DNA from: an uncultured Chloroflexota bacterium
GTDB taxonomy: Bacteria > Chloroflexota > Dehalococcoidia > Lucifugimonadales > UBA826
Direction: 5' to 3'
Length of the DNA: 64,000 nucleotides
Assembly (NCBI GenBank): GCA_913045625.1
Contig: CAJWPE010000002.1
Coordinates: 1,729-65,728 of the forward strand
In this document: positions 36,226 to 51,584 of the stretch, one piece after another
How the letters are laid out: each line of letters begins with the position of its first letter
Numbering within the stretch: position 1 is the first letter of the stretch
Notes under the pieces: generated by a model
What the model was told of the DNA's origin: nothing
The model's database searches: none
What the model saw: the letters and a program-made list of their open reading frames with translations, nothing else
Translations under genes and position numbers: made by a program

Positions 36226-36230
36226 AGAAG

Positions 36231-37280
36231 TTAATTGATAGTAACAGTTTGATTAGTATTTGAAGATTCGTACACACCCAATGCTATTTTTAAAACGTGA
36301 GTAGAAAAATCTATATCCATGTCAATATGGCAGTCATTGTTGATTGAGTCTATAAATGCGTGTGCTGCCCCCTTAAATCCAGAAATCCAATCAGAATCAA
36401 TTTGATGGTGAGTTGATTTGTCACCATTAAAAACAATTAATGGAGGTAAATCTAGCATTTCTCCAGTACATCTGGTGATCCAAATTGTTCCCTCACTACC
36501 AATTATTTCAAAGAATTCGTCTACTGAGTAATATTTTGATCTTAAATACATTTCAGGAGAAGATGCATAATCAATAGAAACTAGACATTTTTTATTTTTT
36601 ACCTCAAAAATTGTAGAGCTAGGAGTTTCGTCAATAAAATCTTCGTTCTTAGATACAAAAGCTGAAATTTTAGAGATTTCACCGACAAGATTTACAGCTG
36701 TAGCATAATGATGCCACCCCCCATCGTAAAGGCCACCTCCAGGATTTTTGTTTGAGTCTCTGCGCCAAATGTTTGTATCATTTTCTAGCTTATATGAATT
36801 TGAAGATTTGCCCCTAAGATGACGTATTCTAATCATGTTAGGTTCTCCAATAGCACCATCATTGATTAGTTGTTTAGCTTTAATTATGGGAGGGTAATAT
36901 AAATAATTTTCAGTAATTCGAAACTTGGAGGTCGATTTTTTTAATGCTGAATTGATTTTTTCAGCTTCATCTAATGTAGTGGATAAAGGTTTTTGGCAAG
37001 ATACGTGCTTATTTGAATTTAATGCTTTTATGATTTGTTCTGAATGAAGAAAAGTTGGGGTTAATATTTCTATTGCGTCCATGTCAGTATTGGAAATAAA
37101 TTCATCAAAGTCTGTGAAAATTTGAGGTTTAATTCCCCATTGGTCTGATCTAGATTCTGCTCTTTCGTATTGAGTGTCACACAAACTGACGATTTCGCAG
37201 TTAGAATTTTCTAAGTATCCCGGGACATTTAATTGTGAAATAGCTCCACAGCCAACAATTCCGAGTTTGATTTTTGTCAT
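36231..37280 (-). CDS. Gfo/Idh/MocA family NAD(P)-dependent oxidoreductase
   Basis: N-terminal GIVGCGAIS Rossmann fold and a CQKPL (EKP-type) motif. Confidence 0.8.
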   Translation of the reverse strand: MTKIKLGIVGCGAISQLNVPGYLENSNCEIVSLCDTQYERAESRSDQWGIKPQIFTDFDEFISNTDMDAIEILTPTFLHSEQIIKALNSNKHVSCQKPLSTTLDEAEKINSALKKSTSKFRITENYLYYPPIIKAKQLINDGAIGEPNMIRIRHLRGKSSNSYKLENDTNIWRRDSNKNPGGGLYDGGWHHYATAVNLVGEISKISAFVSKNEDFIDETPSSTIFEVKNKKCLVSIDYASSPEMYLRSKYYSVDEFFEIIGSEGTIWITRCTGEMLDLPPLIVFNGDKSTHHQIDSDWISGFKGAAHAFIDSINNDCHIDMDIDFSTHVLKIALGVYESSNTNQTVTIN

Positions 37281-37301
37281 ATCGACTCCATTAGATATAG
37301 T

Positions 37302-38051
37302 TTAGTCGTCTTTCCAAAATCTTTCCTCTAGAAATTCAAAAGATAGATTTGAAACTTTTGTTTTTACGTCTTCTATCATTCCAGGATGGCCGCAAGCATA
37401 TACCATTGTGTTATTTGGAGAAAGATTTAAAGAGTTGATCTGATCAACTATAATATTATTCACTCTACCAGTAGTGCCATTCCAAGAGGAATTTTTTAAA
37501 TCATCCGGTCTACTAATTGTAGGAACGAAATGCACTAATTTAGGGTTTGATTTCATTAAATTAAAGAATTCATTGTCATATACAAATTCATCAAAATAGC
37601 TTGCACCTTCAAGAATGTAAAATTTATGGCCCTTTTTGTTTTGGTGTATGTAGTTTCTAATAATGCTTACATATGGAACTATGCCTGTAACAGTTCCAAC
37701 AAAAAGCTGATTAGGGTGGTTTTCTTTTAATGTGAAGATTCCTTTAGCTCTTGGTCTAATGGTGACTGAATCCCCTGTTTTTAAATTCCATAATTGAGGA
37801 GTTAAAACGCCCCCATCATTCTCTGGAACTAGTTCAATGAACAATTCTAAGAATTCTTCATGAGGTGAAGATGCAATGGAGTATGCTCGTTCGATGTGAT
37901 TTTTACCAATCGTACAATATTGACCGGGTTTGAAATCGAAATTAACAGGCTTTTTTAACCAAATAAGTCTTAAGTCGTCAGTTTTATTCTCATAGTCAAT
38001 TACAGTAGTTGTAGGTAAATCATTATTTTTATTGAGCTTTTGAATAGTCAA
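37302..38051 (-). CDS. fpr: Ferredoxin/flavodoxin-NADP+ reductase (bacterial Fpr-type FNR)
   Basis: RAYSIAS FAD motif, GTVTGIVP NADP loop, YACGHPGM, and a C-terminal aromatic (ERFW). 249 aa, like E. coli Fpr. Confidence 0.75.
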   Translation of the reverse strand: MTIQKLNKNNDLPTTTVIDYENKTDDLRLIWLKKPVNFDFKPGQYCTIGKNHIERAYSIASSPHEEFLELFIELVPENDGGVLTPQLWNLKTGDSVTIRPRAKGIFTLKENHPNQLFVGTVTGIVPYVSIIRNYIHQNKKGHKFYILEGASYFDEFVYDNEFFNLMKSNPKLVHFVPTISRPDDLKNSSWNGTTGRVNNIIVDQINSLNLSPNNTMVYACGHPGMIEDVKTKVSNLSFEFLEERFWKDD

Positions 38052-38068
38052 AACGTCTCCGATAAAAA

Positions 38069-40741
38069 TTACTCAGGTTTTTCAATTCTTACTGGAATTA
38101 AATTTAATTGGTCAAAATACAACATAGGGTCTTCAGTTTTATGTTCTTGAACCTTTTCAATCACTGAACCAAAGAGTTGAGTTGTAGAAACAATTCCTGA
38201 ATTAATTCCGTTGAGATGTGCAATACCAGATAGTTCAAAATTATCTCCAATAATTTTAATGGAGTCTCCCTCAAAAATATTATTGTCTGAAGCATCTTGA
38301 GTGTTCAATTCAATAATTTCATTTCTGGTAATAGAGTTTCTATCATTTATCAATTGGATTTTTGCATCTGATTTTGACTCTTCTAAAATCCGTCCTCTAG
38401 TTAAAATCATGGGGAACTCGTTAGTAGCAATAGAATTATTATCGGTTGAAATATTTAGAGTTTTAAATTGTAGGTTTCTGTTAACAGAATATATTTGACC
38501 GCTTTCAGAAATTTTCTCAAGGTTAATATTATTTGTCGAAAGAATGAATGGGCTTAATTCTGTGAAAACTTCATCAGAATTGGAATAATTGAAATCGTCA
38601 GAGCCCATTCTTGAGGCTAGTTGGCACAGAATTCTCCAATCTTCATCTTCATCAAACTTATTCCCAAGTGCTGGATTAACTTTATGTATTCTTCTCTCAA
38701 GGTTAGTAAATGTACCATCTTTTTCAGCAAATAAATTAGATGGGAATACTACGTCAGCTTTATCTGTAAATTCATTTTCAAAGCTTTCATGAACCACTAA
38801 AAATTCTACTTTATCAAGTGAGTTCTTAAGGTTTTTACTAGATTCTGAAGACATAGAGGCTTGGTTTCCAATAATATGTAAAGCTTTAATATCACCTGTT
38901 TGGCAAGCTTCTTCTAAATTTCCTAATCCTATTCCAGTTTTTGGGATAGGTGAGTATCCAGGCCCAAAATTAGGAATGCAACCCATATCTCTAGCGCCTT
39001 GTTCATTAGGGCCAGAGAATAAGGGATAAATTCCTGAACCAGGTTTTTCAACATTTCCTGTTAATAAAGCTAAGTTAACTATTGATGTTGATGTAGACTC
39101 CTTGATTTTAGAATTAATTGTATCCAGCGAATATAAAAACGATGTGGATGTAGATTCTGCAATTAGTTTTGCTAAATTTTGAATTTCTTCTTGTGAAATT
39201 CCAGTTTCTTTAGATACTCTAGAAAGATCAAAGTCCCAAACACTGCTTCTAAATTCATCAAAGTTCTCGCAAGATTTTGTTGAAAAATCATGGTTTTCTA
39301 ACGATTGATCTATTATAGATCTAATAATTCCCCCAATTAATACATGTTCTGTGTTGAGGTTTGGTTTGACCCAATGGTCTGCGAATCTTGTTAGTTCAGT
39401 TTCTCTAGGGTCGATAATTATTGCTTTTGACCCTTTTGATATAGCTTGTTTTATTGGTACTCCCAATACATTGTGTTGTTCTGTAATGTTTGAAGAAACT
39501 ATCACAAATAATTCTGTTTTCAATAAGTTCCATATAGTATTTGTGGCAGATGGGTGACCAATCATAGGAGCTAAATTGTCAAAGATTTCTGGGTTAGTGT
39601 TTGAAGAGAAATCAATATTATTGGACTGCATGATTTGTCTTGTAAATTTCTGTGCTATGTAATGATCTTCATTAGTTCCTCTGTCAGATGAGATTAGTGA
39701 ATAATGATCACCTTTAAATTGTGAAAGTTTCGAGGCTACTAAATCTAATGCTTCGGGCCATGAGGCTTCAACTAATTCACCATTTTTTTTGATTAAAGGA
39801 GTTTTAATCCTATTTCTGTTGTTGGCATAGTCGAGTCCAAATTTTCCCTTGAAGCACGTCATTCCTTGGTTAGCATCTGCTTCTCGAACAGGAATCGATC
39901 GAATAAGTTTATTTCTTTTGTTAATATCTAATGATGTTTGGCATCCAACAGGACAATGTGGACATGTTGTTGTTGTTTTGACTTCTGCTTTGTCCCATTT
40001 ATAATCGCGCTCAACTATCGCTCCAGTGGGACAAACATCGATGCATGCTCCACAAAACTCACAACCTGATTCTAATAGTGATATTCCTTTAGATGTACCT
40101 ATAATGCTTCTGCCTGATCTCTCTTTCAGTGTGATTGCTTGATCGACTCTTACTTCATCACAAGCCCTTACACATCTAGAGCAGACAATGCATAAATTCA
40201 TATCCATATCCCAAAAAGGGTCTTTAACCTCTAATGGCAGGTGTCGGTTGTTATATGTCAATGGGGTTGTTAATTCCATTTCCATGTATCTGACAGTATC
40301 TTTAAGTTCACACCTTTCATTTTTAGGACAAGTCACGCATCTGTCATTCACGGTCACATGCCTTAGGCATACGTCCGTAGGTCCACAAAGATCAATTCTG
40401 TGACAATTTAAACACCCGTGAGGGTGCTCTGAAATCAATAATTCCATGATCCCTTTGCGTAGCGAAATTAATTCGTCGGTATTTGTTTCAACTTTCATTC
40501 CCTCTGAAATTGGAGTTGTGCAAGAAGCTGGACTTCCAGGTAAAGATCTGTATGATCCATCTGGAGTTGGTGCTTCTGCTTTCACAACGCACATCCTGCA
40601 AGCACCATAAGGTTTCATACCAGGGTAATAACATAAATATGGGATGTACATTCCATTGTCCATTGCAGCCTGAATGATCATGCTTCCTGGTTCTGCCTGA
40701 ATTTCTTTACCGTCAATAGTTAAGTTAATTTTTTCAGTCAT
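38069..40741 (-). CDS. NuoG/FdsA-like Fe-S subunit with molybdopterin-oxidoreductase-fold domain (Mo ligand apparently absent)
   Basis: N-terminal 2Fe-2S, HPHGCLNCH..C cluster, two ferredoxin CxxCxxCxxxC(P) motifs, MopB cluster CPHCPVGC and a C-terminal MopB beta-barrel. The position of the FDH Cys/Sec-His reads DFSSNTNPE. Confidence 0.75.
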   Translation of the reverse strand: MTEKINLTIDGKEIQAEPGSMIIQAAMDNGMYIPYLCYYPGMKPYGACRMCVVKAEAPTPDGSYRSLPGSPASCTTPISEGMKVETNTDELISLRKGIMELLISEHPHGCLNCHRIDLCGPTDVCLRHVTVNDRCVTCPKNERCELKDTVRYMEMELTTPLTYNNRHLPLEVKDPFWDMDMNLCIVCSRCVRACDEVRVDQAITLKERSGRSIIGTSKGISLLESGCEFCGACIDVCPTGAIVERDYKWDKAEVKTTTTCPHCPVGCQTSLDINKRNKLIRSIPVREADANQGMTCFKGKFGLDYANNRNRIKTPLIKKNGELVEASWPEALDLVASKLSQFKGDHYSLISSDRGTNEDHYIAQKFTRQIMQSNNIDFSSNTNPEIFDNLAPMIGHPSATNTIWNLLKTELFVIVSSNITEQHNVLGVPIKQAISKGSKAIIIDPRETELTRFADHWVKPNLNTEHVLIGGIIRSIIDQSLENHDFSTKSCENFDEFRSSVWDFDLSRVSKETGISQEEIQNLAKLIAESTSTSFLYSLDTINSKIKESTSTSIVNLALLTGNVEKPGSGIYPLFSGPNEQGARDMGCIPNFGPGYSPIPKTGIGLGNLEEACQTGDIKALHIIGNQASMSSESSKNLKNSLDKVEFLVVHESFENEFTDKADVVFPSNLFAEKDGTFTNLERRIHKVNPALGNKFDEDEDWRILCQLASRMGSDDFNYSNSDEVFTELSPFILSTNNINLEKISESGQIYSVNRNLQFKTLNISTDNNSIATNEFPMILTRGRILEESKSDAKIQLINDRNSITRNEIIELNTQDASDNNIFEGDSIKIIGDNFELSGIAHLNGINSGIVSTTQLFGSVIEKVQEHKTEDPMLYFDQLNLIPVRIEKPE

Positions 40742-42479
40742 TTTTTACTCCAGCGACAAAGTCTTGAGCATACGGTCGGGTGTTTTTAGGAACAATTTTA
40801 GGGTTGTCACAAGATCCAGTTGGGCAGATTCCGTCTTCAATGTGTGAACGAAAGTCTTTTTCAAAGTGTGTGATTGCAGATCTGATTGGTCCAAAGCCTA
40901 GTTGCCCATGTCCACAAAGTGATCCGGCTTCCATTGTTCCTCCAACACTCTTCATTAAGTCCATATCACCATCTTGACTTTCAAAATTAGAAATTCTTTC
41001 AACAATCTCTAAAAGGTGTTCCATTCCTAATCTACAGGGGAAACATTTTCCACATGATTCAAATTGACAAAATGCAACTAGAATTCTTGTGAGGTCTACT
41101 GCACAGACTTCATTACTACCAACAATAATGCCTCCAGATCCGAATATAGCTCCTGCTGCTCTCATTTCATCAAAATCAATGTGAATGTCTGTACTATCAG
41201 GTCCAAGAACTCCACCTAAAGGGCCGCCGGTTTGTAATAGTTTTAAGGTTTGATCTTTTTTCATACCACCACCTAAATCATCAATTACTTGTTTTAATGT
41301 TAGCCCCATTGGAACTTCGTATAATCCCGGTTTATTTACATCACCACTTAAGCATACTATGGCTGTACCTGTACTTTTATTTACACCTATAGAAGAGAAC
41401 CATTCAGCTCCCTTTGATACAATTTCAGGAGTGTATGACAAAGATTTCACATTATTAATATTGCTTGGCTTTCCCCATACTCCAAATGCAGCAGGGAAGG
41501 GTGGTCGGTACCTAGGCATAGATCTTTTCCCTTCTACTGCTTCCATCAGTGCTGTTTCTTCTCCGGCAACATATGATTCTCCAGTTAATGAGACTTCAAT
41601 GTCGAAGTCAAATCCAGAACCAAATATGTTTTTGCCTAATATACCTAATTCTTTGGCTTGCTTAATGGCTTCTTCAGTTCTGTTAATAGGTCCGTTATGA
41701 CCATGTCTTATGAATACGATTCCGTTGCTTGCTCCAGTAGCATATCCAGCAATCAATAATCCTTCTAAAAGAGTGTGGGGGTCACTTTCCAATATACCTT
41801 TATCGTTAAATGCTCCTGGATCGCCCTCTTCACAATTACAAAGAATGTATTTTGTAGGACTTGAAGACCCCACTAAAAAGCTCCACTTAACTCCTGTAGG
41901 AAATGCGGCACCTCCTCGCCCTCTTAAGCCAGAATTTTTCACCTCATCTATTACATCGGATGGTTTCATTGATGATAAAGCTTTATTTAGCCCTCCATAT
42001 CCCCCGTTAGCAATATATTGAAGAATATCTCCGGGTGCTGTATGCCCTGCGTTTCTAAGAGCAATTCTTTGTTGAAGTGCAATTCCGGGCAAAGAGTTCA
42101 AATCAGGTTCATTAAAATTCGGTCCTTCTGATCCGAGATATCCTAATGTAGTAGCAGTTTCAATTTTATTGTTGATTAAATATTCATCAATTATTGTTTT
42201 TACACTATCAGTAGTGACATTGTTGAAAAACAATCGTGATTGACCCTGTTTTTTTATGTCTATTAATGGCTCAGCATAACAAAGCCCTAAACATCCTACT
42301 TCTTCTATAATGGCATCTATTTTTTTCTCAGATAAAATGGATTTTAGTTTTTCGATTACCCTGAATGCTCCAGAAGCATGGCCGCACATAGCTGTACCAA
42401 CCCTTATAACAGGAATAGTAGAATCGTTTAATTGATTCCATTCTTCATCGGCTTGATTTTTTAATTCTTCAAAATTCAT
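40734..42479 (-). CDS. NuoF/FdsB-like NAD(H)-binding FMN flavoprotein with N-terminal thioredoxin-like extension
   Basis: GLRGRGGAAFPTG FMN/NADH motifs, the N3 cluster SCGKCFPCR...C, and a ~130-aa N-terminal Trx-like ferredoxin-type domain with only 3 Cys. Confidence 0.85.
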   Translation of the reverse strand: MNFEELKNQADEEWNQLNDSTIPVIRVGTAMCGHASGAFRVIEKLKSILSEKKIDAIIEEVGCLGLCYAEPLIDIKKQGQSRLFFNNVTTDSVKTIIDEYLINNKIETATTLGYLGSEGPNFNEPDLNSLPGIALQQRIALRNAGHTAPGDILQYIANGGYGGLNKALSSMKPSDVIDEVKNSGLRGRGGAAFPTGVKWSFLVGSSSPTKYILCNCEEGDPGAFNDKGILESDPHTLLEGLLIAGYATGASNGIVFIRHGHNGPINRTEEAIKQAKELGILGKNIFGSGFDFDIEVSLTGESYVAGEETALMEAVEGKRSMPRYRPPFPAAFGVWGKPSNINNVKSLSYTPEIVSKGAEWFSSIGVNKSTGTAIVCLSGDVNKPGLYEVPMGLTLKQVIDDLGGGMKKDQTLKLLQTGGPLGGVLGPDSTDIHIDFDEMRAAGAIFGSGGIIVGSNEVCAVDLTRILVAFCQFESCGKCFPCRLGMEHLLEIVERISNFESQDGDMDLMKSVGGTMEAGSLCGHGQLGFGPIRSAITHFEKDFRSHIEDGICPTGSCDNPKIVPKNTRPYAQDFVAGVKND

Positions 42480-42985
42480 TATGTATGTTTAGGTTCCGAA
42501 GATTTCATTTGTTTAATTAATTTGATCGACTCATCTGGAGATATTTTCCCAAATAATTCATGATTAAGGCTTATTACTGGAGCTTGAGAGCAAGCACCTA
42601 AGCAAGTATTAAACCTAAAAGAAAATTCGCCGTCTTGTGTATCTCCTTCTTCTTTCAAATCTAGGTAATCTAGAACTGCCTGTAATATTTTAGATGAACC
42701 TTCTAGGTGACATGTAGGACCCCAACAAACTTCTATTGAATGATTGTTAGGAGGAGTAAATCGGAAGTTTGGATAAAACGAAGCTACTCCAAACACTGCA
42801 TTAACAGTAGTGTCTTGTTGTACTGCGACTTCTTCAATAGCTTCGTCTGGTATGTATCCAATAGCATCTTGAATCGCAAGTAAAGAAGACAATACGGTAA
42901 CAGTGGGTCTGTGTTGGGAAGCAATAGCTTCAATAATTTGTTTTCTAAAAGTCTGTTTATCAGCGGGCAAAGATGTTCTCCTCAT
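42479..42985 (-). CDS. NuoE/FdsG-like 2Fe-2S subunit
   Basis: CWGPTCH and CLGACSQAP cluster motifs. The stop overlaps the downstream start (TAATG). Confidence 0.85.
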   Translation of the reverse strand: MRRTSLPADKQTFRKQIIEAIASQHRPTVTVLSSLLAIQDAIGYIPDEAIEEVAVQQDTTVNAVFGVASFYPNFRFTPPNNHSIEVCWGPTCHLEGSSKILQAVLDYLDLKEEGDTQDGEFSFRFNTCLGACSQAPVISLNHELFGKISPDESIKLIKQMKSSEPKHT

Positions 42986-43031
42986 CTTTGTAAACTATCA
43001 CAAGCATATCATAGGGCTTATATAGTCTCAA

Positions 43032-44351
43032 TCAATTGTTTATAGGTTTTTTCATCACTAATTCTGCTAGTTTTTCACCAAGTTCTACGCTGTAATTTGT
43101 ACCCCTATCTTGTGGGTATATTTGAGAAGTATTTCCTAATACTAAATTTTCAATACCTGTTTCGTGTGAAGGCATTTTTCGAGAATATTCAGATTCAATA
43201 ATTGGTTGTGCTCCAGGTATTTTTTGGAAATGAGATTTGATAATCCAATCTTTAGAAAAGTTTGGATTGATTTGATTTAGAAATGGTAAATACTTCTGTA
43301 ATAACTCATTTTCATTAAGTTTGTATAAAGGACTTTGAGTAGTGAGGTAATTAGATAAATAGATTACATGACTATTTCCATAAACTGATTGGTGAACTAA
43401 ATTCGTGTGTTCAATTACGCCTACAAATGGGAATGTTCTATCTGCAATATTTAGCCAATAGTATTTTGATAGTTGGTTTTTTAATTCCAAAATGAGTTGT
43501 ACGGCCGACATATAGCGTGTTTTTTGAAGTTTTTCTTTATATGAATGAGGTAGTCCTATTGTGATTTTGTCAAAGACATTGGAAGGGACCGTTGCTATGA
43601 CTGAGTCGAACTGTAGTGTTTCCCCATCATTCATGTTTAGGGTAAGCGTTCCGGATTCATTTTTTTTGATTTGAGTAATCGGGGAATTTAAGTGTATTTT
43701 TACACCTAAATCCTCACATTTTTTTGACAATGCATTAAAAAATATATCAAAACTACCAGTGGGATATCCAAGTTTTTCCTTTGAAAAAAAACCTTCTCTA
43801 GACTTGAATCTTGTGTTCATTTTCCCCCATAACCATGGCATCCCTACTTCTTTGTAGTGTTCTTCTCCAAATTTACCAATCAACATTGGTTCCCAAAATG
43901 CTTTATAAATTTCACTACTCACATTTTTGTTCAACCACTCTATAGCTGTGAAATTTTCGAGATCATGCCAGTTTTTTATTTTGCTTATTTTTAAACTGGA
44001 TAATCCCAACAATATCCTGTTATTAATAGATAAAGGTTTATATCTCAACAAGTCGAGAGGAGTCATAAAATCGTAAGTTTTAGAATTAAATACAGTTCCG
44101 ACTGAAGATTCATGCCACCCTATTTTATCTTCTAATCCTAATTCACTCATTAAATCTATAATTTTGTTATCGCTAGTGAACCAGTGATGATACCCCTTTT
44201 CTATTGGAGTTCCGTTAATTTGAAATGTTGATGCATGGCCTCCTAAAAAGGTGTCTTTTTCAAAAACAGTTACCTTTGATGATGTTTGCTGAGCAATTCT
44301 TAATGCTGCGGTTAATCCTGTGGCTCCTGCTCCTAGAATAGCAATTTTCAT
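43032..44351 (-). CDS. FAD/NAD(P)-binding oxidoreductase (amine-oxidase / UDP-galactopyranose-mutase-like superfamily)
   Basis: N-terminal ILGAGATGLTAA ... VFEK...GG dinucleotide fold. An internal VGVIEHTN and a C-terminal GNTSQIYPQDRG recall Glf-like proteins; the similarity was judged by eye only. Confidence 0.6.
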   Translation of the reverse strand: MKIAILGAGATGLTAALRIAQQTSSKVTVFEKDTFLGGHASTFQINGTPIEKGYHHWFTSDNKIIDLMSELGLEDKIGWHESSVGTVFNSKTYDFMTPLDLLRYKPLSINNRILLGLSSLKISKIKNWHDLENFTAIEWLNKNVSSEIYKAFWEPMLIGKFGEEHYKEVGMPWLWGKMNTRFKSREGFFSKEKLGYPTGSFDIFFNALSKKCEDLGVKIHLNSPITQIKKNESGTLTLNMNDGETLQFDSVIATVPSNVFDKITIGLPHSYKEKLQKTRYMSAVQLILELKNQLSKYYWLNIADRTFPFVGVIEHTNLVHQSVYGNSHVIYLSNYLTTQSPLYKLNENELLQKYLPFLNQINPNFSKDWIIKSHFQKIPGAQPIIESEYSRKMPSHETGIENLVLGNTSQIYPQDRGTNYSVELGEKLAELVMKKPINN

Positions 44352-45395
44352 TTAATTCTTGGACCCTTGTTCACTTTTTTTGATGTTTTTGATAGACATG
44401 CCATTTTTCCAAAGATATATTTGCCCCAAAATTACAATTGGAATAATTAATAATGCATGAGTCATTCCTGCAAATGCGGCTGCCTCAGATCTAGAAGTGT
44501 TGGAATACGGGATTAGTATCATTGTTTCTCTTGCTATGATTTCAAACAATCCTATTCCTCCAGGAGTAATAGGTATAGCTGCTCCTAAATTTACAATTCC
44601 TGTAATCATGATAGATGATTCAATTAAATAAATGTTTGATTCAAAGTTATGATCAATTCCTATGCTGACACAAACAAAATAAAATAAAAGACCCTCAAGG
44701 ACCCAGATAGGTACGGAAAGAATTAATGTGATAGTTAAAACTTTTCTGTTATTCAAATATTTAAATCCATCAAAAAATTGTCGGAACAATTCTAAATATA
44801 TTTTTGAGATTCTATCAGGTAGAAATTTAGAAGAAAATTCTACAAAATTTATAGTTAACTTAGGTAAAAATGATGCAACTAAAAGTAGGATAAATATCAT
44901 TACAAAGGGAACAGAAAAAATCAAGATTAGAATTAAAGAATTGATTTTTGTCAGTGTTTCAAAATGATTAATTATATTTGAAATAGGTATAAAGAATGAC
45001 ATGGTGATTACTAAAAATATCAATGCCAACGCATCCATAATTCTTTCAACAAAAATGGTTCCGATTCCAGTAGTTAACTTAATCGATGATTTTTGAGATA
45101 GTAAATAACTTCTGATGAACTCCCCAGCTCGTAAGGGTAATATGTTATTTGCCATATACCCAATGACTACAATAGGGAATAAAGTCTTGTTTTTTAGATC
45201 ATGTTTTGTTCCTAGCAAGTATTTCCAACGTATTGTTCTTAACCATAGGCTGAGGAAATAACATACCAATCCAGGGATTAGTATATAAAAATTTGATTCA
45301 GACAAATGTTTTAACATTTCAGAAATGTCAGAAGTCCATATGAAAAACACTAAAAGTAGCACACCTGAAAATATACCTAAAAATGTTTTTGTCAT
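44352..45395 (-). CDS. UPF0104 / lysyl-phosphatidylglycerol-synthase TM-region (MprF flippase-like) membrane protein
   Basis: About 8 TM helices, with an RTIRWKYLL motif after TM2 typical of the family. Abuts the FAD gene with 0 nt spacing. Confidence 0.65.
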   Translation of the reverse strand: MTKTFLGIFSGVLLLVFFIWTSDISEMLKHLSESNFYILIPGLVCYFLSLWLRTIRWKYLLGTKHDLKNKTLFPIVVIGYMANNILPLRAGEFIRSYLLSQKSSIKLTTGIGTIFVERIMDALALIFLVITMSFFIPISNIINHFETLTKINSLILILIFSVPFVMIFILLLVASFLPKLTINFVEFSSKFLPDRISKIYLELFRQFFDGFKYLNNRKVLTITLILSVPIWVLEGLLFYFVCVSIGIDHNFESNIYLIESSIMITGIVNLGAAIPITPGGIGLFEIIARETMILIPYSNTSRSEAAAFAGMTHALLIIPIVILGQIYLWKNGMSIKNIKKSEQGSKN

Positions 45396-45414
45396 AATTT
45401 TAATTCTATAGGAT

Positions 45415-47397
45415 TTATTTTAAGTTTTGAGAAATAATTGTTACATCAGGAAAATCTGATTTGAAATATAAATATGCATCTTCACTTCCGATTTTGTCAG
45501 ATATGCCATTAGCGAAAATCAAGTAGTCAAATAATTTAACAATTTTTTGTGGTTCAAAAATCACATTAGTAATTGTACTGAAATTTAAGTCTCTATAAGT
45601 TGATTCTGGAAACCACCATCTGTGAGGAAAAACAATCGGATCTTCGAATTCTTGGTTTATTTGTGTAGACAATTTTGAAACATTCATGGAATGTATAATT
45701 AAAACATCTAAGTTCGATTGATCTAGACCTTCTGATTTTAAATTTTTGTATGCAACATTATTATTATCTCTTAGATACCAAACCCATGGCCAGACAAATC
45801 CACTAGTAGTATCAATTAAAATGTTTGTTTCTTCATTTGAAGATTTTTTATATGTGTTGATTGCATCACTAATTGATTTTAAATCTGGAGAAGTTTGGGT
45901 ATACACTAGCATTTCTTTAGGTATATCACTGTTAATAAAATTTACCCTATAAGTGATCCATAGATTAAAAATCAAAATTATGCAAATAGCACATATCAAT
46001 ATAGATTTATATACTGTTTTCCTTTTGGAATTTAAGGTAATTAATATGTCACCTAACAATTTCCCTGATAAAAAGATCATTGGTACAGTAATGTTGAATA
46101 ATAACCAAGGCATTTTTTCACTAGCTAAAGTATAAACTGTCCATGATGAGATTACCCAAAAAATTAAAAAAAATGTAAAGTCGGTCGGTTTAATTTTCTT
46201 GATTTTTATATAGTAAATAATGGCCAAAACACTAATAATCATTACTGCTAGTTCGTAAATTGAACTCAGAATAAAATAATAGTAGAAAGGTTGGTTGCCT
46301 CTACCTTCTCCTTGTTGAACTATCCAATACCCTAAAGATTGCCATAATCCTTTATATATACCATCTGTTATGTTAGTAAAGAATGTTGTGTAGATTACTG
46401 TCCAAATTAGCCAAAAAAGGATTGAACATTTAATCCATACTAATTGTCCCCATCTAACTCCAATTAATATTGATATAAAAAACAAGAATCCCGTTATAAA
46501 TATTGCAAGCACTCTATTTTTTTCATCAGGTAACCCTATTCCTGAATTGATTTCATGGGAAACTAAATTAATTTCTAGGGGCAAGAAATTGAAAATTATT
46601 CCAGAAAAAGCTGCCCAAAGAGGGAGAGTAATTGATACTAACAATAAAGTTATAGACACATAATTATTATTAGTCCTATTCATTAAAGAGTTTTTAAATA
46701 CTTTAATAGTTTCTTTAGAGATACCTGAGGTGATTTGTATTATAGTCAGTTCAGAAAAACTAAAATAATTAGAATATGTTTTTATTTTAAAATGAAAGAA
46801 ACCTAGATATCCAATATTTAGTAAATTGAAAGATACCAACATAAAAATTATCAAATACGAAGATTCTTTAGTCCCAAAAATTAGAGCTAAAATTAAAGAT
46901 ATAAAGTATAGGTTTTTTGAATTTCTGTTTGATAAATAATTCCAAATTAGAATGATTAATATTACTGAAAATAAATTCATCAAAACATCGTTTCTAGCGA
47001 ATCTGGTGAAATAAGTAATAGTAGGTGATACTGCTAGAAATAAACTGATTAGTATGCATGGAATTAAGTTGATGTGTTTGATTAAAAAATATGGCATTAC
47101 CACCAAAAGACTTCCACAAGCTACGTAAAGCAATCTACTACTAAAGTCAGAATCTCCAATTACGGAAAAAATTATTGATGTCAATTCCATTTGTAATGGA
47201 CCGTGCATCATAGGGTTATGCGAATATCCCAGTCCTTCGAATAATTTCCAAGAGTAAAATACATGTAAGCTTTCATCGTGATGCATTGCTCTCGAAGATA
47301 TATCAAATAATCGTAAAAATAATGATATTAAAAAAATTGATGAAAATATGACGAATTCTTTTTTGATCAATGAGGAAATATTGAGAAATTTATTCAT
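45415..47397 (-). CDS. GT-C-fold-like polytopic membrane protein (TIGR03663-type, PMT/ArnT-like N-terminus)
   Basis: First-loop acidic motif HHDESLH (DE at 47272-47277), more than 10 TM helices, QPFYYYF motif, and a ~190-aa C-terminal soluble domain. Confidence 0.6.
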   Translation of the reverse strand: MNKFLNISSLIKKEFVIFSSIFLISLFLRLFDISSRAMHHDESLHVFYSWKLFEGLGYSHNPMMHGPLQMELTSIIFSVIGDSDFSSRLLYVACGSLLVVMPYFLIKHINLIPCILISLFLAVSPTITYFTRFARNDVLMNLFSVILIILIWNYLSNRNSKNLYFISLILALIFGTKESSYLIIFMLVSFNLLNIGYLGFFHFKIKTYSNYFSFSELTIIQITSGISKETIKVFKNSLMNRTNNNYVSITLLLVSITLPLWAAFSGIIFNFLPLEINLVSHEINSGIGLPDEKNRVLAIFITGFLFFISILIGVRWGQLVWIKCSILFWLIWTVIYTTFFTNITDGIYKGLWQSLGYWIVQQGEGRGNQPFYYYFILSSIYELAVMIISVLAIIYYIKIKKIKPTDFTFFLIFWVISSWTVYTLASEKMPWLLFNITVPMIFLSGKLLGDILITLNSKRKTVYKSILICAICIILIFNLWITYRVNFINSDIPKEMLVYTQTSPDLKSISDAINTYKKSSNEETNILIDTTSGFVWPWVWYLRDNNNVAYKNLKSEGLDQSNLDVLIIHSMNVSKLSTQINQEFEDPIVFPHRWWFPESTYRDLNFSTITNVIFEPQKIVKLFDYLIFANGISDKIGSEDAYLYFKSDFPDVTIISQNLK

Positions 47398-49687
47398 TAT
47401 TGAGTTTCATGATTTTAATTTCCTGTCCATTATATGTTTCAGAAAATACAGTAGACGCTATTAAATCGAATTTGTCTAAAGATTCCGAATTATATTTGAT
47501 TGATTCATTTTCTCCTATCAATATAAATTTAATGTCATATTGATCCATTAGTTGCTTTGCTTTGTTTGAATCATTTGTTTTATAAATTGTGTCTACATTA
47601 GTTACACGAGATATAATTTCATTAGAACCTTTTCGCCATTGTTTTTCGTGGTCAGGCCAGTTTATGACATTACTGATTCCCGTATTGCTTGAAATTAGAC
47701 CGAATTTATTCCATTCTCCGACAGCCTCTAAAATACCATCTTTTGATGGGATGTTTTCCTTAGCGAATAAAATGGCTTTTGCTTCATGAGGTCTGTTTTG
47801 TTTCAAATCATAAAAGCCATTAATTGAAAAAACATACGAATTTGGTGCAATACTTTGAATAGAGGCAGGTAGATATAAAAATCCCAACAAAAAAGGAATC
47901 ATGATCAATGTAATTGATAATATTCTTTTAAATGTGGTTTTAGTGGTAAGAAATTTTAATAAATCGTAAAGGCATATGCCGCTTGTGACAGATAAAAAAA
48001 TCCAAGCAAGATAATAAAACTTAAATATTGTGTTCATTCTATTATTAAAAATATCTCCTAGGAATAAAAATTCTGGTATTGCTAAAAGGAAAAAAGAGAT
48101 ACCAATTATTGAAAGGGTGATCACTGATTTACGGTTAAAATAATTTTGATTTATAGAAAAAGCATAAAAAATACTAGCGGCCGAAAACAATAAAAATATT
48201 GCTCCTGTTATTGTTTTGTGGTTAACCGACGGGTTTTTTGACTGTAAAAACAATGAAAAAATTATTGGAGATATTACAAAAAATATAGATATGAATAATG
48301 ATTTTTTCCATTTTTTACCTACAGGATATATACCTGCGATCCTTATTAAATAAATCAAATGGATAATTAAAAAAGGAAGCCAAATAATTAATTCTTGTGT
48401 GAAATTACTTTGTATATTTGTTGCATATACTCCATGAATAGATGATTCAAATGAATTTATGAGAGTAAATAATAAAACTATTAAAACCGCACATAGTGAT
48501 CCAATTAATGTCAGTAATTCATTTTTGGAATATTTTTGATAATTGAAAATTTTTAATAAGGATATTCCTACAGTAATAAACAGAACTATTGCGAGGTTCC
48601 ATATATTAATAAATGTAATACCAAATCCTATTAACCCAAATAATGTTATTAGCATCAATGTTTTAAATGAATAAATTTTAGAGTGTTTTACAATGAATAT
48701 TGCAATAATTAAAAATGTGATAACAAATGGAATGCTCATAACATGAGGGTGTAAGTCTCCAAGTATAAAGCTGAAAAATGGGAACTCATTAATTGTGTAA
48801 TCACTACCTGGTAGATTACAGGAGTTCCCGAAATGGTTAATGATTCTTGTACTTTTGAACCACCACCAAAATTCATGAGGGAAAAATGTGGATGTAACTC
48901 TAGTGCCACTACCAGTAAGGCCCTCTATGCACACGAAATCCCATACTCTCTGTGGTAATAAATCTTTTTCTTCAAGCATTTTTAATGGGGTATATAAATT
49001 TCCCAAGAATACTAAGCTAGTTGATGCAAATATAGAAGGTATGAAGACTTGTTTTAATCTGGGGGTTTGTATTGTAACTAGATAAATTACAATTCCTGAA
49101 ACTGTACTGAATGCTAAATATGGAATTGAGATTAGTGATAGGTTGTAAGCAATTTCAGGTGATACGGAAAGAAGGTTTCCAAATCTCCCAAAAATCCAAT
49201 ATCCAAAATAATAATAATTAATAGGTTCACCTTTGAACCATGGGTCTGAGGGTAGATTAGAGTGAGAATTATAGACAGCATTTAAGAATGCAAAATCCAT
49301 TGGTTGTTCAGTATGACTAATGGAAGGATCAAGAGATTTGATCAATAGAAATATTCCAAATATTGTTAATGAGGTTAAAAATATAAAAAATATTATTAGA
49401 TAATTTGATCTTAATGAATTTATATATGAGGTGAAATAATTTCGATTGAAATAGTAACTAAAAATCACAAAAATCGATATTAATATAAGGATTAATGATT
49501 TTGAAATTTCGATTGGTGCGAAAAAGTGCAATATCCAAGTTACTCCTCCAAACCCCAATAGAAATAAGGGTTTAGAGATACAAAATCCTACATAGGAGAA
49601 ATTTTTAAATAATCTGAATATTGATAAATGTGTAACAATTCCTAATATCTCTAAAGTTGCTATCCAAAAAATGATGTTCATTATCAA
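47390..49687 (-). CDS. DUF2298 / Chlor_Arch_YYY (TIGR03662-type) polytopic membrane protein
   Basis: HTEQPMDFAFLNA and INYYYFGYW (YYY at 49208-49216), about 20 TM helices, and a C-terminal soluble domain. Overlaps the downstream gene by 8 nt. Confidence 0.65.
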   Translation of the reverse strand: MIMNIIFWIATLEILGIVTHLSIFRLFKNFSYVGFCISKPLFLLGFGGVTWILHFFAPIEISKSLILILISIFVIFSYYFNRNYFTSYINSLRSNYLIIFFIFLTSLTIFGIFLLIKSLDPSISHTEQPMDFAFLNAVYNSHSNLPSDPWFKGEPINYYYFGYWIFGRFGNLLSVSPEIAYNLSLISIPYLAFSTVSGIVIYLVTIQTPRLKQVFIPSIFASTSLVFLGNLYTPLKMLEEKDLLPQRVWDFVCIEGLTGSGTRVTSTFFPHEFWWWFKSTRIINHFGNSCNLPGSDYTINEFPFFSFILGDLHPHVMSIPFVITFLIIAIFIVKHSKIYSFKTLMLITLFGLIGFGITFINIWNLAIVLFITVGISLLKIFNYQKYSKNELLTLIGSLCAVLIVLLFTLINSFESSIHGVYATNIQSNFTQELIIWLPFLIIHLIYLIRIAGIYPVGKKWKKSLFISIFFVISPIIFSLFLQSKNPSVNHKTITGAIFLLFSAASIFYAFSINQNYFNRKSVITLSIIGISFFLLAIPEFLFLGDIFNNRMNTIFKFYYLAWIFLSVTSGICLYDLLKFLTTKTTFKRILSITLIMIPFLLGFLYLPASIQSIAPNSYVFSINGFYDLKQNRPHEAKAILFAKENIPSKDGILEAVGEWNKFGLISSNTGISNVINWPDHEKQWRKGSNEIISRVTNVDTIYKTNDSNKAKQLMDQYDIKFILIGENESIKYNSESLDKFDLIASTVFSETYNGQEIKIMKLNNE

Positions 49688-49695
49688 ATTTCTTT

Positions 49696-50610
49696 TCAGT
49701 TAAAAACATATTCAGTAAATAAATTTGGGTCGAATAATGCTATGTCAAAAGGTTGCTCGCCCGTTCCTATAAATGAAATTGGTATGTTAGTTTCTTCAAT
49801 GATTGGAATAATGATTCCACCTTTTGATGTCCCGTCTAATTTTGTTAAAAAAATCCCATTGCATTGAATTGATTCATTGAATGATTTTGCTTGTAACAGC
49901 CCGTTTTGTCCCGTGGTCGCATCTAATGTGAGTAGGGTATGTAAGTTGTAATGTCCTTTAGATTGATTCAAGACTTTATAAATTTTTTTAAGCTCATCCA
50001 TTAAATTTGAGTTTTCATGTAATCTTCCTGCTGTATCTATAATTACTAAATCTATATTTCTTTTTTTTGCTGCTGAAATTGTATCGAATGCTACTGCACT
50101 AGGGTCACTTCCTGGTTGATGTGAAATCACATCGAAGTTTAATCTTTCTCCCCATAGTTTGATTTGTTCAATTGCCGCCGCTCTGTACGTGTCTGCTGCA
50201 CCACATAAGACACTTTTACCTTGTTGTTGAAAAAAATGAGATAGTTTTGCTATTGCAGTAGTTTTTCCTACACCATTCACCCCAGCCATAACTAGTATTT
50301 GAGGGAAGTTCTCATTCTTTGAAATCTCATCATGTTTAGAGGATTCTAAAATATGTTGAATTTCGTTTTTAATGAGAATACCTAAATTTGGAGATGTTGA
50401 TTTTTGTACGCTAAAAGAATTTTTTATAGATTCAATTATGTTAGTTGTTGAATACATACCAATATCTGAACTTACTAATATGTCTTCTAGCTCCTCTAAA
50501 TCATTTAATGAAAGTTGTTGAGATTTGAAGATATCTGGAATTTGGCCAAAAAAAGAATTTTTGGTTTTCGCAAATGCATTTTTTAAGCTTTGATGGGTTT
50601 TTTTATTCAT
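49696..50610 (-). CDS. ftsY: Signal recognition particle receptor FtsY (short form)
   Basis: SRP-GTPase NG domain: GVNGVGKTT, DTAGR, TKLD. Confidence 0.95.
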   Translation of the reverse strand: MNKKTHQSLKNAFAKTKNSFFGQIPDIFKSQQLSLNDLEELEDILVSSDIGMYSTTNIIESIKNSFSVQKSTSPNLGILIKNEIQHILESSKHDEISKNENFPQILVMAGVNGVGKTTAIAKLSHFFQQQGKSVLCGAADTYRAAAIEQIKLWGERLNFDVISHQPGSDPSAVAFDTISAAKKRNIDLVIIDTAGRLHENSNLMDELKKIYKVLNQSKGHYNLHTLLTLDATTGQNGLLQAKSFNESIQCNGIFLTKLDGTSKGGIIIPIIEETNIPISFIGTGEQPFDIALFDPNLFTEYVFN

Positions 50611-50708
50611 AATTATTTCTTTGATGATAATTTAACATTACCCAACAAGTATTTACAGGGTTAATGAAAGTAATTACAATTATCTTTGTAGCAAATAATG
50701 AGGACTTT

Positions 50709-51584
50709 ATGGAAATTAGAGATTTAAGAAGCTTTGAATCTGCCGCTAGAAACCGTAGCATTTCTAAAGCTGCTAATGAGTTGGGTTGCGGGCAACCCAC
50801 AGTTACTACTCACATTAAAAAACTTGAACAAGAATTGTCTATGGTGTTGTTTGACAGGGTTACTAGGCCGATTGGTGTTACTTTGTCAGGTCAAATGATT
50901 TATGATTTGATTAAGCCATTGCTTGATGGATTAGATTCTTTAGCTTCTAGAACATCTCAGGCTGAAGAAAAAGGTCCCGTTATTATTGCTGCTACTCCTG
51001 ATATTATTCCACATACACTTTTGAAAGTTGTTAAAGAATTTAATATTCGATTTCCTGATGTTTTTCTTAAAATTATTTCAGGTAATCGTTCAGAAGTGAC
51101 ATCAATGGTAAAAACAGGTGAGGCTGATGCAGGAATTATTCAGCATCCAGATAGAGGATCTGATTTAGATTTTGAACCACTATTTTTATACGAACGTGTT
51201 CTTATAGCTCCTAAAAATCATGTTTTACTTCAACGTGAATCTATTGACTTAGATGATATTGCAAAATTTCCTTTAATAATGATGGCGAAAGGTACCTACA
51301 CTAGACAAGTTGTTGAAGATCAATTCCAAAAGAAAAACATTGCTTATGATGTAGTGATGGAATTAGAGAGTATGGATATGATTAAAAAATTTGTAGCTTT
51401 GGGTATGGGTATTTCTGTAGGGCCTAAATTAGCAATTGATGAGGATGATTTAGAAGAATTAGAGGTTTTATCTCTTGCTAACTATTTGCCTGTTGATCAG
51501 GCTGGTTTACTTACATTACCGGGAAAAAGTTTTTCTACTCCATCTAATCAATTTTTTTCAGTAATGAGAGAAGTACTGGCATAA
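50709..51584 (+). CDS. LysR-family transcriptional regulator
   Basis: HTH ISKAANELGCGQPTVTTHIKKLE. Start moved to the ATG at 50709 (MEIRDLRSF, the canonical LysR N-terminus), preceded by GAGGA. Confidence 0.9.
   Translation: MEIRDLRSFESAARNRSISKAANELGCGQPTVTTHIKKLEQELSMVLFDRVTRPIGVTLSGQMIYDLIKPLLDGLDSLASRTSQAEEKGPVIIAATPDIIPHTLLKVVKEFNIRFPDVFLKIISGNRSEVTSMVKTGEADAGIIQHPDRGSDLDFEPLFLYERVLIAPKNHVLLQRESIDLDDIAKFPLIMMAKGTYTRQVVEDQFQKKNIAYDVVMELESMDMIKKFVALGMGISVGPKLAIDEDDLEELEVLSLANYLPVDQAGLLTLPGKSFSTPSNQFFSVMREVLA

Follow-up and report, generated by a model that had tools for sequence, protein, structure and literature searches.

What do four adjacent genes for three membrane proteins and one flavoenzyme do together in an uncultured Chloroflexota bacterium? 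The genes lie in a 64-kb window (the whole stretch of DNA that was analysed, 64,000 nucleotides of contig CAJWPE010000002.1, assembly GCA_913045625.1; positions below refer to it unless a locus number is given) and are all encoded on the minus strand, as are the motifs located within them. They specify a YYY protein (gene 1, DUF2298/Chlor_Arch_YYY; open reading frame (ORF) of 765 amino acids (aa), 47390..49687), a TIGR03663/Agl23-like protein (gene 2, 660-aa ORF, 45415..47397), a stand-alone UPF0104/LPG_synthase_TM protein (gene 3, 347-aa ORF, 44352..45395) and a PRK07233 flavoenzyme (gene 4, 439-aa ORF, 43032..44351). The most likely answer is decoration of the cell envelope with sugars borne on a membrane lipid. 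On balance we lean towards reading the four genes as one extracytoplasmic glycosylation module that uses a lipid-linked (polyprenyl-phosphate) sugar donor, because all four families score above their cut-offs, the two large proteins yield confident models of the glycosyltransferase C (GT-C) fold with conserved acidic motifs in predicted outward loops, relatives have been described in the literature, and the families recur as neighbours elsewhere.

The first-pass annotation of this DNA had described four co-directional genes without giving their strand. They are genes rather than chance ORFs, since all four exceed the curated cut-offs of their families, and the spacing given for them is exact: genes 1 and 2 overlap by 8 nt (47390-47397), 19 nt (45396-45414) separate genes 2 and 3, and genes 3 and 4 abut (0-nt gap). 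All motifs cited at that stage are present in the translations at the expected sites. Database searches with three of the proteins (765, 660 and 439 aa) returned more than 1000 homologues each. The ORF of gene 1 reaches 765 aa from the TTG at 49687, but the database version of its protein (a 100% identity cluster) has 763 aa, which makes the ATG at 49681, two codons downstream, the more probable start. Proteins identical to those of the module occur on a Tara Oceans scaffold, and the closest genomes are metagenome-assembled genomes (MAGs) of SAR202 (Chloroflexota, Dehalococcoidia). The dark ocean harbours SAR202 and other Dehalococcoidia in abundance, and a large part of bacterial diversity belongs to Patescibacteria, which also carry several of these families; how either group builds and decorates its envelope is almost undescribed.

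The two large membrane proteins

The YYY protein matches TIGR03662 with 360.9 bits (cut-off 300.25) over nearly its full length (residues 3-743, profile positions 3-709 of 727) and PF10060 (DUF2298) with E = 6e-75, and it agrees with the family description in carrying a YYYxG motif in a strongly hydrophobic protein (expected about 700-900 aa). Gene 2 was likewise correctly placed in TIGR03663 (241 bits, cut-off 126.25), with a further match to PF13231 (PMT_2; E = 4e-8). AlphaFold2 models of both proteins, built on alignments of 62 homologues for YYY (A1) and 65 for the Agl23-like protein (A2), have pLDDT values of 90.7 and 89.5 and pTM values of 0.93 and 0.91, respectively. The YYY model has about 16 predicted transmembrane (TM) helices, two large loops that would face outward and a 149-aa C-terminal globular domain; the Agl23-like model ends in an alpha/beta domain (about aa 490-660).

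Foldseek searches of the PDB with the two models returned GT-C enzymes. The nine best hits of YYY are without exception GT-C enzymes (E 2e-7 to 5e-2) and include AglB (5gmy/7e9s, E about 2e-7), DPY19, human STT3A, AftA and ArnT, and its C-terminal domain matches the C-terminal domain of AglB (3vu0, TM-score 0.51). For the Agl23-like protein, all 26 hits at E <= 1e-3 are GT-C, among them AglB (3waj), STT3A/B, yeast Stt3, ArnT, PglB, Pmt4, ALG9 and ALG12. Matches of Foldseek probability 1.0 are GT-C only for both models. In line with the earlier view of both proteins, a GT-C fold and an extracytoplasmic C-terminal domain are predicted for each with high confidence from the models and the Foldseek matches. 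A profile-profile comparison of the two families gave a probability of 3.5%, which is not significant, and we do not claim them as paralogues. Full-text searches of the library used returned no functional literature on DUF2298, which like the TIGR numbers was mentioned only in passing, in three papers, and a search for GT-C surveys gave nothing on DUF2298; the fold-level assignment of DUF2298/YYY to AglB/STT3-like GT-C enzymes, as predicted by the model, appears to be new.

To orient the YYY protein we took its loops between the modelled helices and counted Lys and Arg in each (positive-inside rule). Eight short loops assigned to the inside hold 10 K/R and 0 D/E, against 3 K/R in five short loops assigned to the outside, which supports a predicted N-out/C-out topology with both large loops and the C-terminal domain facing outward. 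The first large loop (120-176; 5 D/E, 2 K/R; flanked by loops assigned to the inside) contains HTEQPMDFAFLNA (aa 125-137, 49277..49315), in which E127 and D131 (HTEQPMDF) are invariant across A1; by analogy with GT-C enzymes these would be candidate catalytic or metal-binding acidic residues. The same loop holds the family-defining YYYxG motif, INYYYFGYW (aa 156-164, 49196..49222), with Y158, Y159, Y160, F161, G162 and W164 invariant in A1. In the second large loop, DYTINEFPFFSF (aa 296-307, 48767..48802) has invariant D296, T298, I299 and E301 (A1; stretch DYTINEF), a sequence reminiscent of the TIXE motif in external loop 5 (EL5) of PglB/AglB. The best-conserved stretch of the predicted extracytoplasmic C-terminal domain is NWPDHEKQWRKG (aa 676-687, 47627..47662; NWPGHExQWRG block), where W677, H680, W684 and R685 are invariant and conservation is 90% or higher at N676, P678, G679 and Q683 (A1). 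Other conserved residues in A1 are H313/H315 and R550/K556.

The Agl23-like protein carries HHDESLH (aa 39-45, 47263..47283), a PMT-like DE dipeptide in the first loop after TM1; in A2, conservation is 90% or higher at each of H39, H40, D41 and E42. We place this loop outside by the positive-inside rule, as the N-terminus carries K3, K12 and K13; for D41/E42 as for E127/D131 of YYY, the outward position is a prediction from this rule. The conserved N-terminal residues D41-E42, H65-G66-P67 (invariant), R132 and R135 (both invariant) correspond to the TIGR03663 description, an invariant DE dipeptide, an HGP tripeptide and two Arg; D137 and K177-E178 are also conserved. Further along lies FYYYF (aa 371-375, 46273..46287; consensus QPWYYYF), with Q369, P370 and Y373 invariant and Y374 at least 90% conserved (A2). 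The conserved residues of both large proteins are compatible with a GT-C active site, and judging by fold and gene neighbours both would transfer sugar from a donor linked to polyprenyl-(pyro)phosphate.

The first-pass statement that no member of these families has a known biochemical function is outdated, as TIGR03663 is the Agl23 family, with an experimentally studied member in Haloarcula. One paper (PMC11182771) describes Haloarcula hispanica Agl23 as the putative flippase for hexose-P-dolichol, reports that it suppresses a yeast rft1 deletion and that the purified protein translocates Man5GlcNAc2-PP-dolichol in proteoliposomes, and cites Lu et al. 2020 for a role of Agl22/Agl23 in Dol-P-hexose synthesis and its use in N- and O-glycosylation. 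The NCBIfam name of TIGR03663 is now "flippase activity-associated protein Agl23". As that model is of the "subfamily" and not the "equivalog" type, a match to it does not establish orthology to Haloarcula Agl23.

On these data the Agl23-like protein might do no more than flip or scramble the donor, with YYY as sole transferase and UPF0104 flipping another lipid, such as a modified phospholipid as in MprF. The published flipping activity and yeast rescue, the family name, and the aminoacyl- or glucosaminyl-phospholipids flipped by characterised UPF0104 domains all speak for this arrangement. However, the protein's GT-C fold is complete, with PMT-type DE, HGP and Arg residues that are conserved from SAR202 to haloarchaea (YDEGW in haloarchaeal Agl23) as expected for catalysis, and the haloarchaeal gene is followed in two loci by GtrA, a proposed Gtr-type flippase, which leaves the transferase role to Agl23. 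Because of the full fold, the conserved DE motif and the GtrA neighbour, a role as transferase, or at least as more than a flippase, is suggested for the Agl23-like protein, and we consider a flippase-only role possible rather than probable. The published flipping activity is equally real, and the tension between the name of Agl23 and its GT-C catalytic features appears to be new. An annotated archaeal relative, Halogeometricum Agl23, aligns over aa 20-179 at 29% identity (E = 4e-20), with the DE, HGP, SRFxRxD and TKES blocks common to both; since only these roughly 180 N-terminal residues align, and at this identity, transfer of function from archaeal Agl23 is uncertain either way.

We also observed a 1073-aa Agl23/PMT_2-type protein in another locus (L167, 2219-5440) with a C-terminal NHL-repeat beta-propeller, which is consistent with an extracytoplasmic acceptor-binding C-terminus in the Agl23 family.

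The UPF0104 protein and the flavoenzyme

Gene 3 was correctly called as UPF0104: PF03706 matches residues 11-324 with 154.6 bits (cut-off 33.4, E = 5e-45) and TIGR00374 with 103.6 bits (cut-off 43.2), and RTIRWKYLL is present (aa 53-61, 45213-45239). The equivalog for flippases of glucosaminyl-phosphatidylglycerol (GlcN-PG) was rejected, with 24 bits against 320. UPF0104 was predicted in 2015 to act as a glycosylation flippase in archaea, where the Dol-P-sugar synthase AglD carries it as its C-terminal domain and where a PMT/STT3-like gene and an AglD-like GT2 gene lie next to it (Makarova et al. 2015, PMC5898192). Its tightest gene partner is the flavoenzyme, directly downstream of it in 25 of 41 close loci and in 14 of 80 distant loci, the latter being a set of flavoenzyme loci gathered with a profile led by a distant homologue.

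The flavoenzyme scores 458.8 bits on NF005560 (PRK07233; residues 1-434), well above the curated equivalog cut-off of 252, which upholds its assignment as an enzyme with a flavin adenine dinucleotide (FAD) fold. PF01593 (E = 2e-30) and PF13450 also match, placing it in the amine-oxidase/protoporphyrinogen oxidase (PPO)/phytoene-desaturase superfamily, and the dinucleotide-binding motif GAGATG (aa 7-12, 44316-44333) marks its FAD site. The first-pass annotation had left room for a CrtI/HemY-type enzyme of another pathway. Its own family model gives it 459 bits and the PRK07208, HpnE, HemY and CrtI models no more than 88 bits, each far below its cut-off, and we reject the identities HpnE (85.5 bits, cut-off 283), HemY (proto_IX_ox; 65.2, cut-off 97.85) and CrtI (crtI_fam 39.6 against 238, phytoene_desat 40.3 against 569). 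DprE1 and Glf, to whose logic the enzyme had been likened, are also rejected as identities: neither a FAD_binding_4 domain of the vanillyl-alcohol oxidase (VAO) type nor NF053785 is among its matches, and the GLF domain PF03275 is not matched. Similarity to UDP-galactopyranose mutase (UGM) structures in the PDB is weak and partial (single sequence E about 1e-4 over aa 3-101, profile E = 8e-9 over aa 5-209). The solved structures closest to the flavoenzyme profile are PPO (1sez) and plant phytoene desaturase (PDS, 5mog), both with E about 3e-17.

Three reactions can be considered for this enzyme. Oxidation, epimerisation or a ring change of a sugar is the option we would place first, although it falls short of an even chance. 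Saturation or desaturation of the polyprenyl carrier is less probable, and is kept as an option because the fold relatives of the flavoenzyme use hydrophobic isoprenoid or tetrapyrrole substrates. Some other reaction is slightly less probable again. Full-text searches of the library used turned up no paper that mentions PRK07233/NF005560, and the family was not identified among the genes described in published texts for the Pseudomonas aeruginosa pilin D-arabinofuranose (D-Araf) cluster or the rhizobial noe arabinosylation operon.

Several apparent relatives were set aside. FAD-family matches of about 40 bits near haloarchaeal Agl23 are other amine-oxidase-family proteins and not PRK07233. A 753-aa ORF that looked like a fusion of UPF0104 and the flavoenzyme (L174) was rejected as an over-long ORF in a high-GC genome, of which only the C-terminal 424 aa match. 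An Embleya match (34% identity) comes from a high-GC record that has no annotation and in which many ORFs overlap, and was left uninterpreted.

Neighbourhoods of the families in other lineages

The functional link between the families proposed at the outset draws support from independent neighbourhoods in other phyla. In Patescibacteria-like loci a bona fide PRK07233 gene (367-384 bits) has downstream of it, on its own strand, one or two PMT_2/ALG9-like GT-C genes, often an epimerase/dehydratase of the short-chain dehydrogenase/reductase (SDR) type, sometimes a small GT2 gene (7 loci), and then a TIGR03662 gene that is likewise bona fide (481 bits in locus L113). A YYY or PMT_2-type GT-C gene lies within 8 kb of PRK07233 in 29 of 39 such loci, and in 19 of the 23 that have at least 6 kb of downstream sequence; LCP and MurJ genes occur nearby.

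Of 32 loci from non-Dehalococcoidia Chloroflexota (Anaerolineae, Ardenticatenales, Caldilineae, Chloroflexus), 16 have UPF0104 in the flank of the flavoenzyme gene; in most cases it is immediately upstream, and an overlap of 4 nt is frequent. A UDP-glucose dehydrogenase gene follows the flavoenzyme gene in 9 loci of the 80-locus set. Locus L167 has the order Agl23-Agl23-UPF0104-UPF0104-flavoenzyme, and in a Nanoarchaeota MAG a PMT_2 GT-C gene is divergent from the flavoenzyme gene, beside sugar-activation genes. Haloarchaea, where Agl23 precedes GtrA in two loci as noted above, have a YYY gene ahead of the pair in one.

Alpha- and betaproteobacterial plasmids, from Agrobacterium (A. salinitolerans pDG3-1a), Burkholderia (B. 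stagnalis) and a Rhodobacteraceae strain, encode PRK07233 at 510-548 bits as the fifth gene of a conserved six-gene cassette (L203 3452-9634; L204 3446-9685; L219 4430-10597), after a UbiA-type phosphoribosyltransferase, a DprE1-like FAD oxidase, a DprE2-like SDR and an NAD epimerase/dehydratase and before GtrA. The DprE1-like gene, three genes upstream of PRK07233, scores 372.6 bits (equivalog cut-off 500). This cassette is a polyprenyl-phosphate pentofuranose pathway of the three-component type, and PRK07233 does not replace DprE1/DprE2, because DprE1- and DprE2-like genes are present alongside it. The cassette is flanked by glycosyltransferases and by hypothetical proteins of 530-810 aa without a Pfam or NCBIfam match.

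The sole constant across these lineages is polyprenyl-phosphate-sugar machinery, be it a GT-C transferase or a protein of the flippase type. The recurrence of PRK07233 beside GT-C and flippase-like genes, seen in five lineages or more, appears to be a new observation.

Several further features of the Patescibacteria-like loci were observed. In loci L123-L158 the cluster of flavoenzyme, GT-C and YYY genes commonly lies 3' of genes for PilN/PilO-like type IV pilus proteins and Big_13/PKD/LPXTG surface proteins, on the same strand and 2-7 kb upstream of the flavoenzyme gene; pilins or surface proteins are a possibility as acceptors in Patescibacteria. Three kinds of conserved cluster protein have no Pfam or NCBIfam match: one of 722 aa (L114 14574-16742), a 549-aa family directly after the flavoenzyme gene in 7 loci (L118 11247-12896 = L145 9247-10896) and a family of about 181 aa just before the YYY gene in 11 loci (L124 13721-14266). 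Many third-party annotation (TPA) assemblies titled "uncultured Gammaproteobacteria bacterium" (L113, L115, L127, L128, L135, L140, L143, L150, L155, L157, L159, L162 and L165) have flavoenzyme genes 41-52% identical to those of Levyibacteriota/Microgenomates and share the gene context of the latter where examined (e.g. L113, L127); their Gammaproteobacteria labels look wrong.

Proposed pathway, its alternatives and the surrounding genes

If the four genes form one module, a polyprenyl-phosphate sugar would first be made at the cytoplasmic face by a synthase encoded outside the window. The PRK07233 flavoenzyme would then alter this donor (its sugar or its polyprenyl part) or an immediate precursor at the inner face of the membrane, UPF0104, possibly aided by the Agl23-like protein, would carry the donor to the outer leaflet, and YYY, probably together with the Agl23-like protein, would transfer the sugar to an envelope acceptor, either a protein or a glycan. 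The genes, their families, the predicted folds and the neighbourhoods that recur in several phyla are what the data show; from these we infer the class of substrate, the succession of the steps, the topology and how the two GT-C proteins share the work.

A number of observations weigh against this reading. In the first-pass annotation the pathway looked complete, which is wrong: neither a GT2 nor a UbiA-type phosphoribosyltransferase that could serve as polyprenyl-phosphate sugar synthase is found near the module or elsewhere in the 64-kb window, where the sole UbiA-family gene is a haem O synthase in a cytochrome oxidase cluster. Nor does the window, which otherwise holds housekeeping genes, contain any other sugar gene. 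The Foldseek TM-scores of the YYY and Agl23-like models are modest (0.3-0.47) and searches of all PDB chains with sequences and profiles of both families gave no similarity to solved GT-C enzymes, so that the GT-C link is at fold level only. PPO and PDS, the closest solved relatives of the flavoenzyme, act on hydrophobic isoprenoid or tetrapyrrole substrates that are not sugars. Loci within one phylum are related, and neighbourhood counts are therefore not independent events.

The remaining points against it concern gene order. Four-gene adjacency is kept within Dehalococcoidia/SAR202 and nowhere else: the 80 species loci anchored on YYY include 51 with an Agl23-like gene no more than 10 kb away, 14 with UPF0104 and 9 with the flavoenzyme, and the four families come together in 6, all of them Dehalococcoidia. 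In this class the flanks (FtsY upstream, NuoE/NuoF/FdhA-like downstream) are as conserved as the module, and the four-gene block could therefore be inherited synteny. UPF0104 is missing between Agl23 and the flavoenzyme in L002 and L003, and about 12 Dehalococcoidia loci (L091, L093, L095-L104, L112, L117) keep the flavoenzyme gene, with or without UPF0104, beside NuoE/F with no YYY or Agl23-like gene within 10 kb. In Anaerolineae the YYY-Agl23 pair and the UPF0104-flavoenzyme pair are at separate loci.

Most of these gene-order data also fit the chief competing explanation, in which two unrelated conserved pairs (YYY with the Agl23-like gene, UPF0104 with the flavoenzyme) stand side by side through FtsY...NuoEF synteny and have no common substrate. 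The pairs are apart in Chloroflexia as well as in Anaerolineae, the flavoenzyme persists beside NuoE/F in the Dehalococcoidia loci just listed, and no terminators bound the module within its equally conserved flanks. This explanation is opposed by the rejoining of the same families in other arrangements: in Patescibacteria the flavoenzyme stands beside YYY or PMT_2-type GT-C genes in another gene order, in the Nanoarchaeota genome it stands beside a PMT_2 GT-C gene, L167 joins Agl23 genes directly to UPF0104-UPF0104-flavoenzyme, and the plasmid flavoenzyme sits inside a polyprenyl-phosphate-sugar cassette with GtrA. We accordingly regard two unrelated pairs as unlikely. A third explanation, that the flavoenzyme and UPF0104 act on a non-carrier isoprenoid or other lipid without any tie to glycosylation, takes its appeal from hopanoid and carotenoid pathways (HpnE is among the best secondary NCBIfam matches, PPO and phytoene desaturase come nearest among solved structures, and HpnL of hopanoid clusters is a UPF0104-family protein) and is very unlikely, as the scores are far under the family cut-offs, the PRK07233 neighbours in five lineages serve sugar and glycan metabolism (UDP-glucose dehydrogenase, SDR epimerases, GT2, GT-C, GtrA, DprE1/E2-like and LCP genes), and the window holds no squalene, phytoene or hopanoid genes.

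The general logic of a single glycosylation module is that of the Gtr, Arn, decaprenyl-phosphoryl-arabinose (DPA)/Emb and archaeal Agl22/Agl23 systems. All four families are already catalogued, and the succession of donor, flippase and GT-C transferase is textbook knowledge that has already been predicted for archaeal UPF0104 with PMT/STT3-like genes. Three-component periplasmic systems (GtrA/GtrB/Gtr*, ArnC/ArnEF/ArnT, Rv3806c-DprE1/E2-Rv3789-Emb/Aft), in which GtrA is the proposed flippase of the Gtr type (PMC11127046), follow the logic proposed for the module (a sugar donor on polyprenyl phosphate, a small membrane protein of the flippase type, a transferase of the GT-C type), and PRK07233 relatives lie inside such a cassette next to GtrA on the proteobacterial plasmids. 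The SAR202 module differs in lacking a donor synthase of either the GT2 or the UbiA type, in having an MprF-type UPF0104 protein rather than GtrA or a small multidrug resistance (SMR) protein as flippase candidate, and in combining two GT-C proteins of un- or barely characterised families with an extra flavoenzyme of the amine-oxidase fold. With the Agl22/Agl23 pair of Haloarcula hispanica it has in common a gene 2 product that passes TIGR03663 and the predicted use of a lipid-phosphate sugar outside the membrane; however, its host is bacterial, no Agl22-like GT2 is nearby, and YYY, UPF0104 and the flavoenzyme are absent from the described haloarchaeal pair.

AglB/STT3/PglB (GT-C class A) are the best structural matches of both large proteins, and YYY has conserved acidic residues in two loops predicted to face outward. 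The module proteins nevertheless lack a WWDYG motif and any sequence-level similarity to these enzymes, and YYY has about 16 TM helices (three before its first large loop) compared with 13. The archaeal AglD neighbourhood (GT2, UPF0104 arCOG00899 and PMT/STT3-like arCOG00563; PMC5898192) also sets UPF0104 beside a PMT/STT3-like membrane protein, whereas the SAR202 UPF0104 is stand-alone and unfused to GT2, has no adjacent AglD-like GT2 and is partnered by a flavoenzyme. DprE1/DprE2 (decaprenyl-phospho-ribose 2'-epimerase) and Glf offer an analogy, being flavoenzymes that rework the sugar on the donor of a GT-C enzyme or on the precursor of that donor, and PRK07233 adjoins SDR enzymes in some lineages; its amine-oxidase/PPO fold is unlike the VAO fold of DprE1.

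If the single-module reading is true, DUF2298/YYY and PRK07233 gain a concrete role in lipid-linked extracytoplasmic glycosylation, and the "flippase-associated" label of the Agl23 family is called into question. The occurrence of PRK07233 in a DPA-like UbiA/DprE1/DprE2/GtrA cassette of culturable Agrobacterium, Burkholderia and Rhodobacteraceae gives easy genetic entry to the chemistry of the flavoenzyme. A bolder proposal, which we think quite unlikely, is that DUF2298/YYY proteins are unrecognised AglB/STT3-like transferases that glycosylate surface proteins (S-layer proteins, pilins, sortase substrates) in Chloroflexota, Patescibacteria and some Archaea, with PRK07233 making an unusual donor, in which either the sugar is of the keto, epimerised or furanose kind or the carrier is saturated like dolichol. 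Were it true, it would add a new bacterial pathway in a highly abundant deep-ocean clade and in the candidate phyla radiation.

The module is embedded in a longer run on the minus strand (50610..33664) of at least 11 genes: FtsY, the four module genes, NuoE-like, NuoF-like, an 890-aa NuoG/FdhA-like molybdopterin protein, an NAD_binding_1 reductase, a GFO_IDH_MocA oxidoreductase and MutS. It is 8 nt from FtsY and 46 nt from the NuoE-like gene, with no terminator-like site at either border, and the four genes are no self-contained transcription unit; lying inside the FtsY-MutS run without terminators, the module is set off by function rather than by transcription signals. GC content falls to 0.29-0.30 across genes 1-3 (44001-50000 scanned) from 0.33-0.40 in the flanks. 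Horizontal transfer was rejected as the cause since close relatives keep the locus, and the dip is probably a codon effect, as membrane proteins rich in Phe, Ile, Leu, Tyr, Asn and Lys use AT-rich codons.

Just upstream of FtsY are a sortase-family gene (51585-52394, minus strand) and a divergent LysR regulator gene (50664-51584, plus strand), both syntenic in SAR202 relatives; sortase substrates could be candidate acceptors for envelope glycosylation. The NuoE-like, NuoF-like and 890-aa NuoG/FdhA-like proteins together resemble a soluble NAD-linked formate dehydrogenase, and the order flavoenzyme-NuoE-NuoF-FdhA is kept in nearly all Dehalococcoidia loci examined and in no other lineage. The FdhA-like ORF (38069-40741) runs uninterrupted. 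Towards the other end of the window, a gene for a SelB-like selenocysteine-specific elongation factor (2307-4160, plus strand; the WHD_3rd_SelB domain was read from an identical gene in an NCBI MAG) suggests selenoprotein synthesis in the SAR202 lineage.

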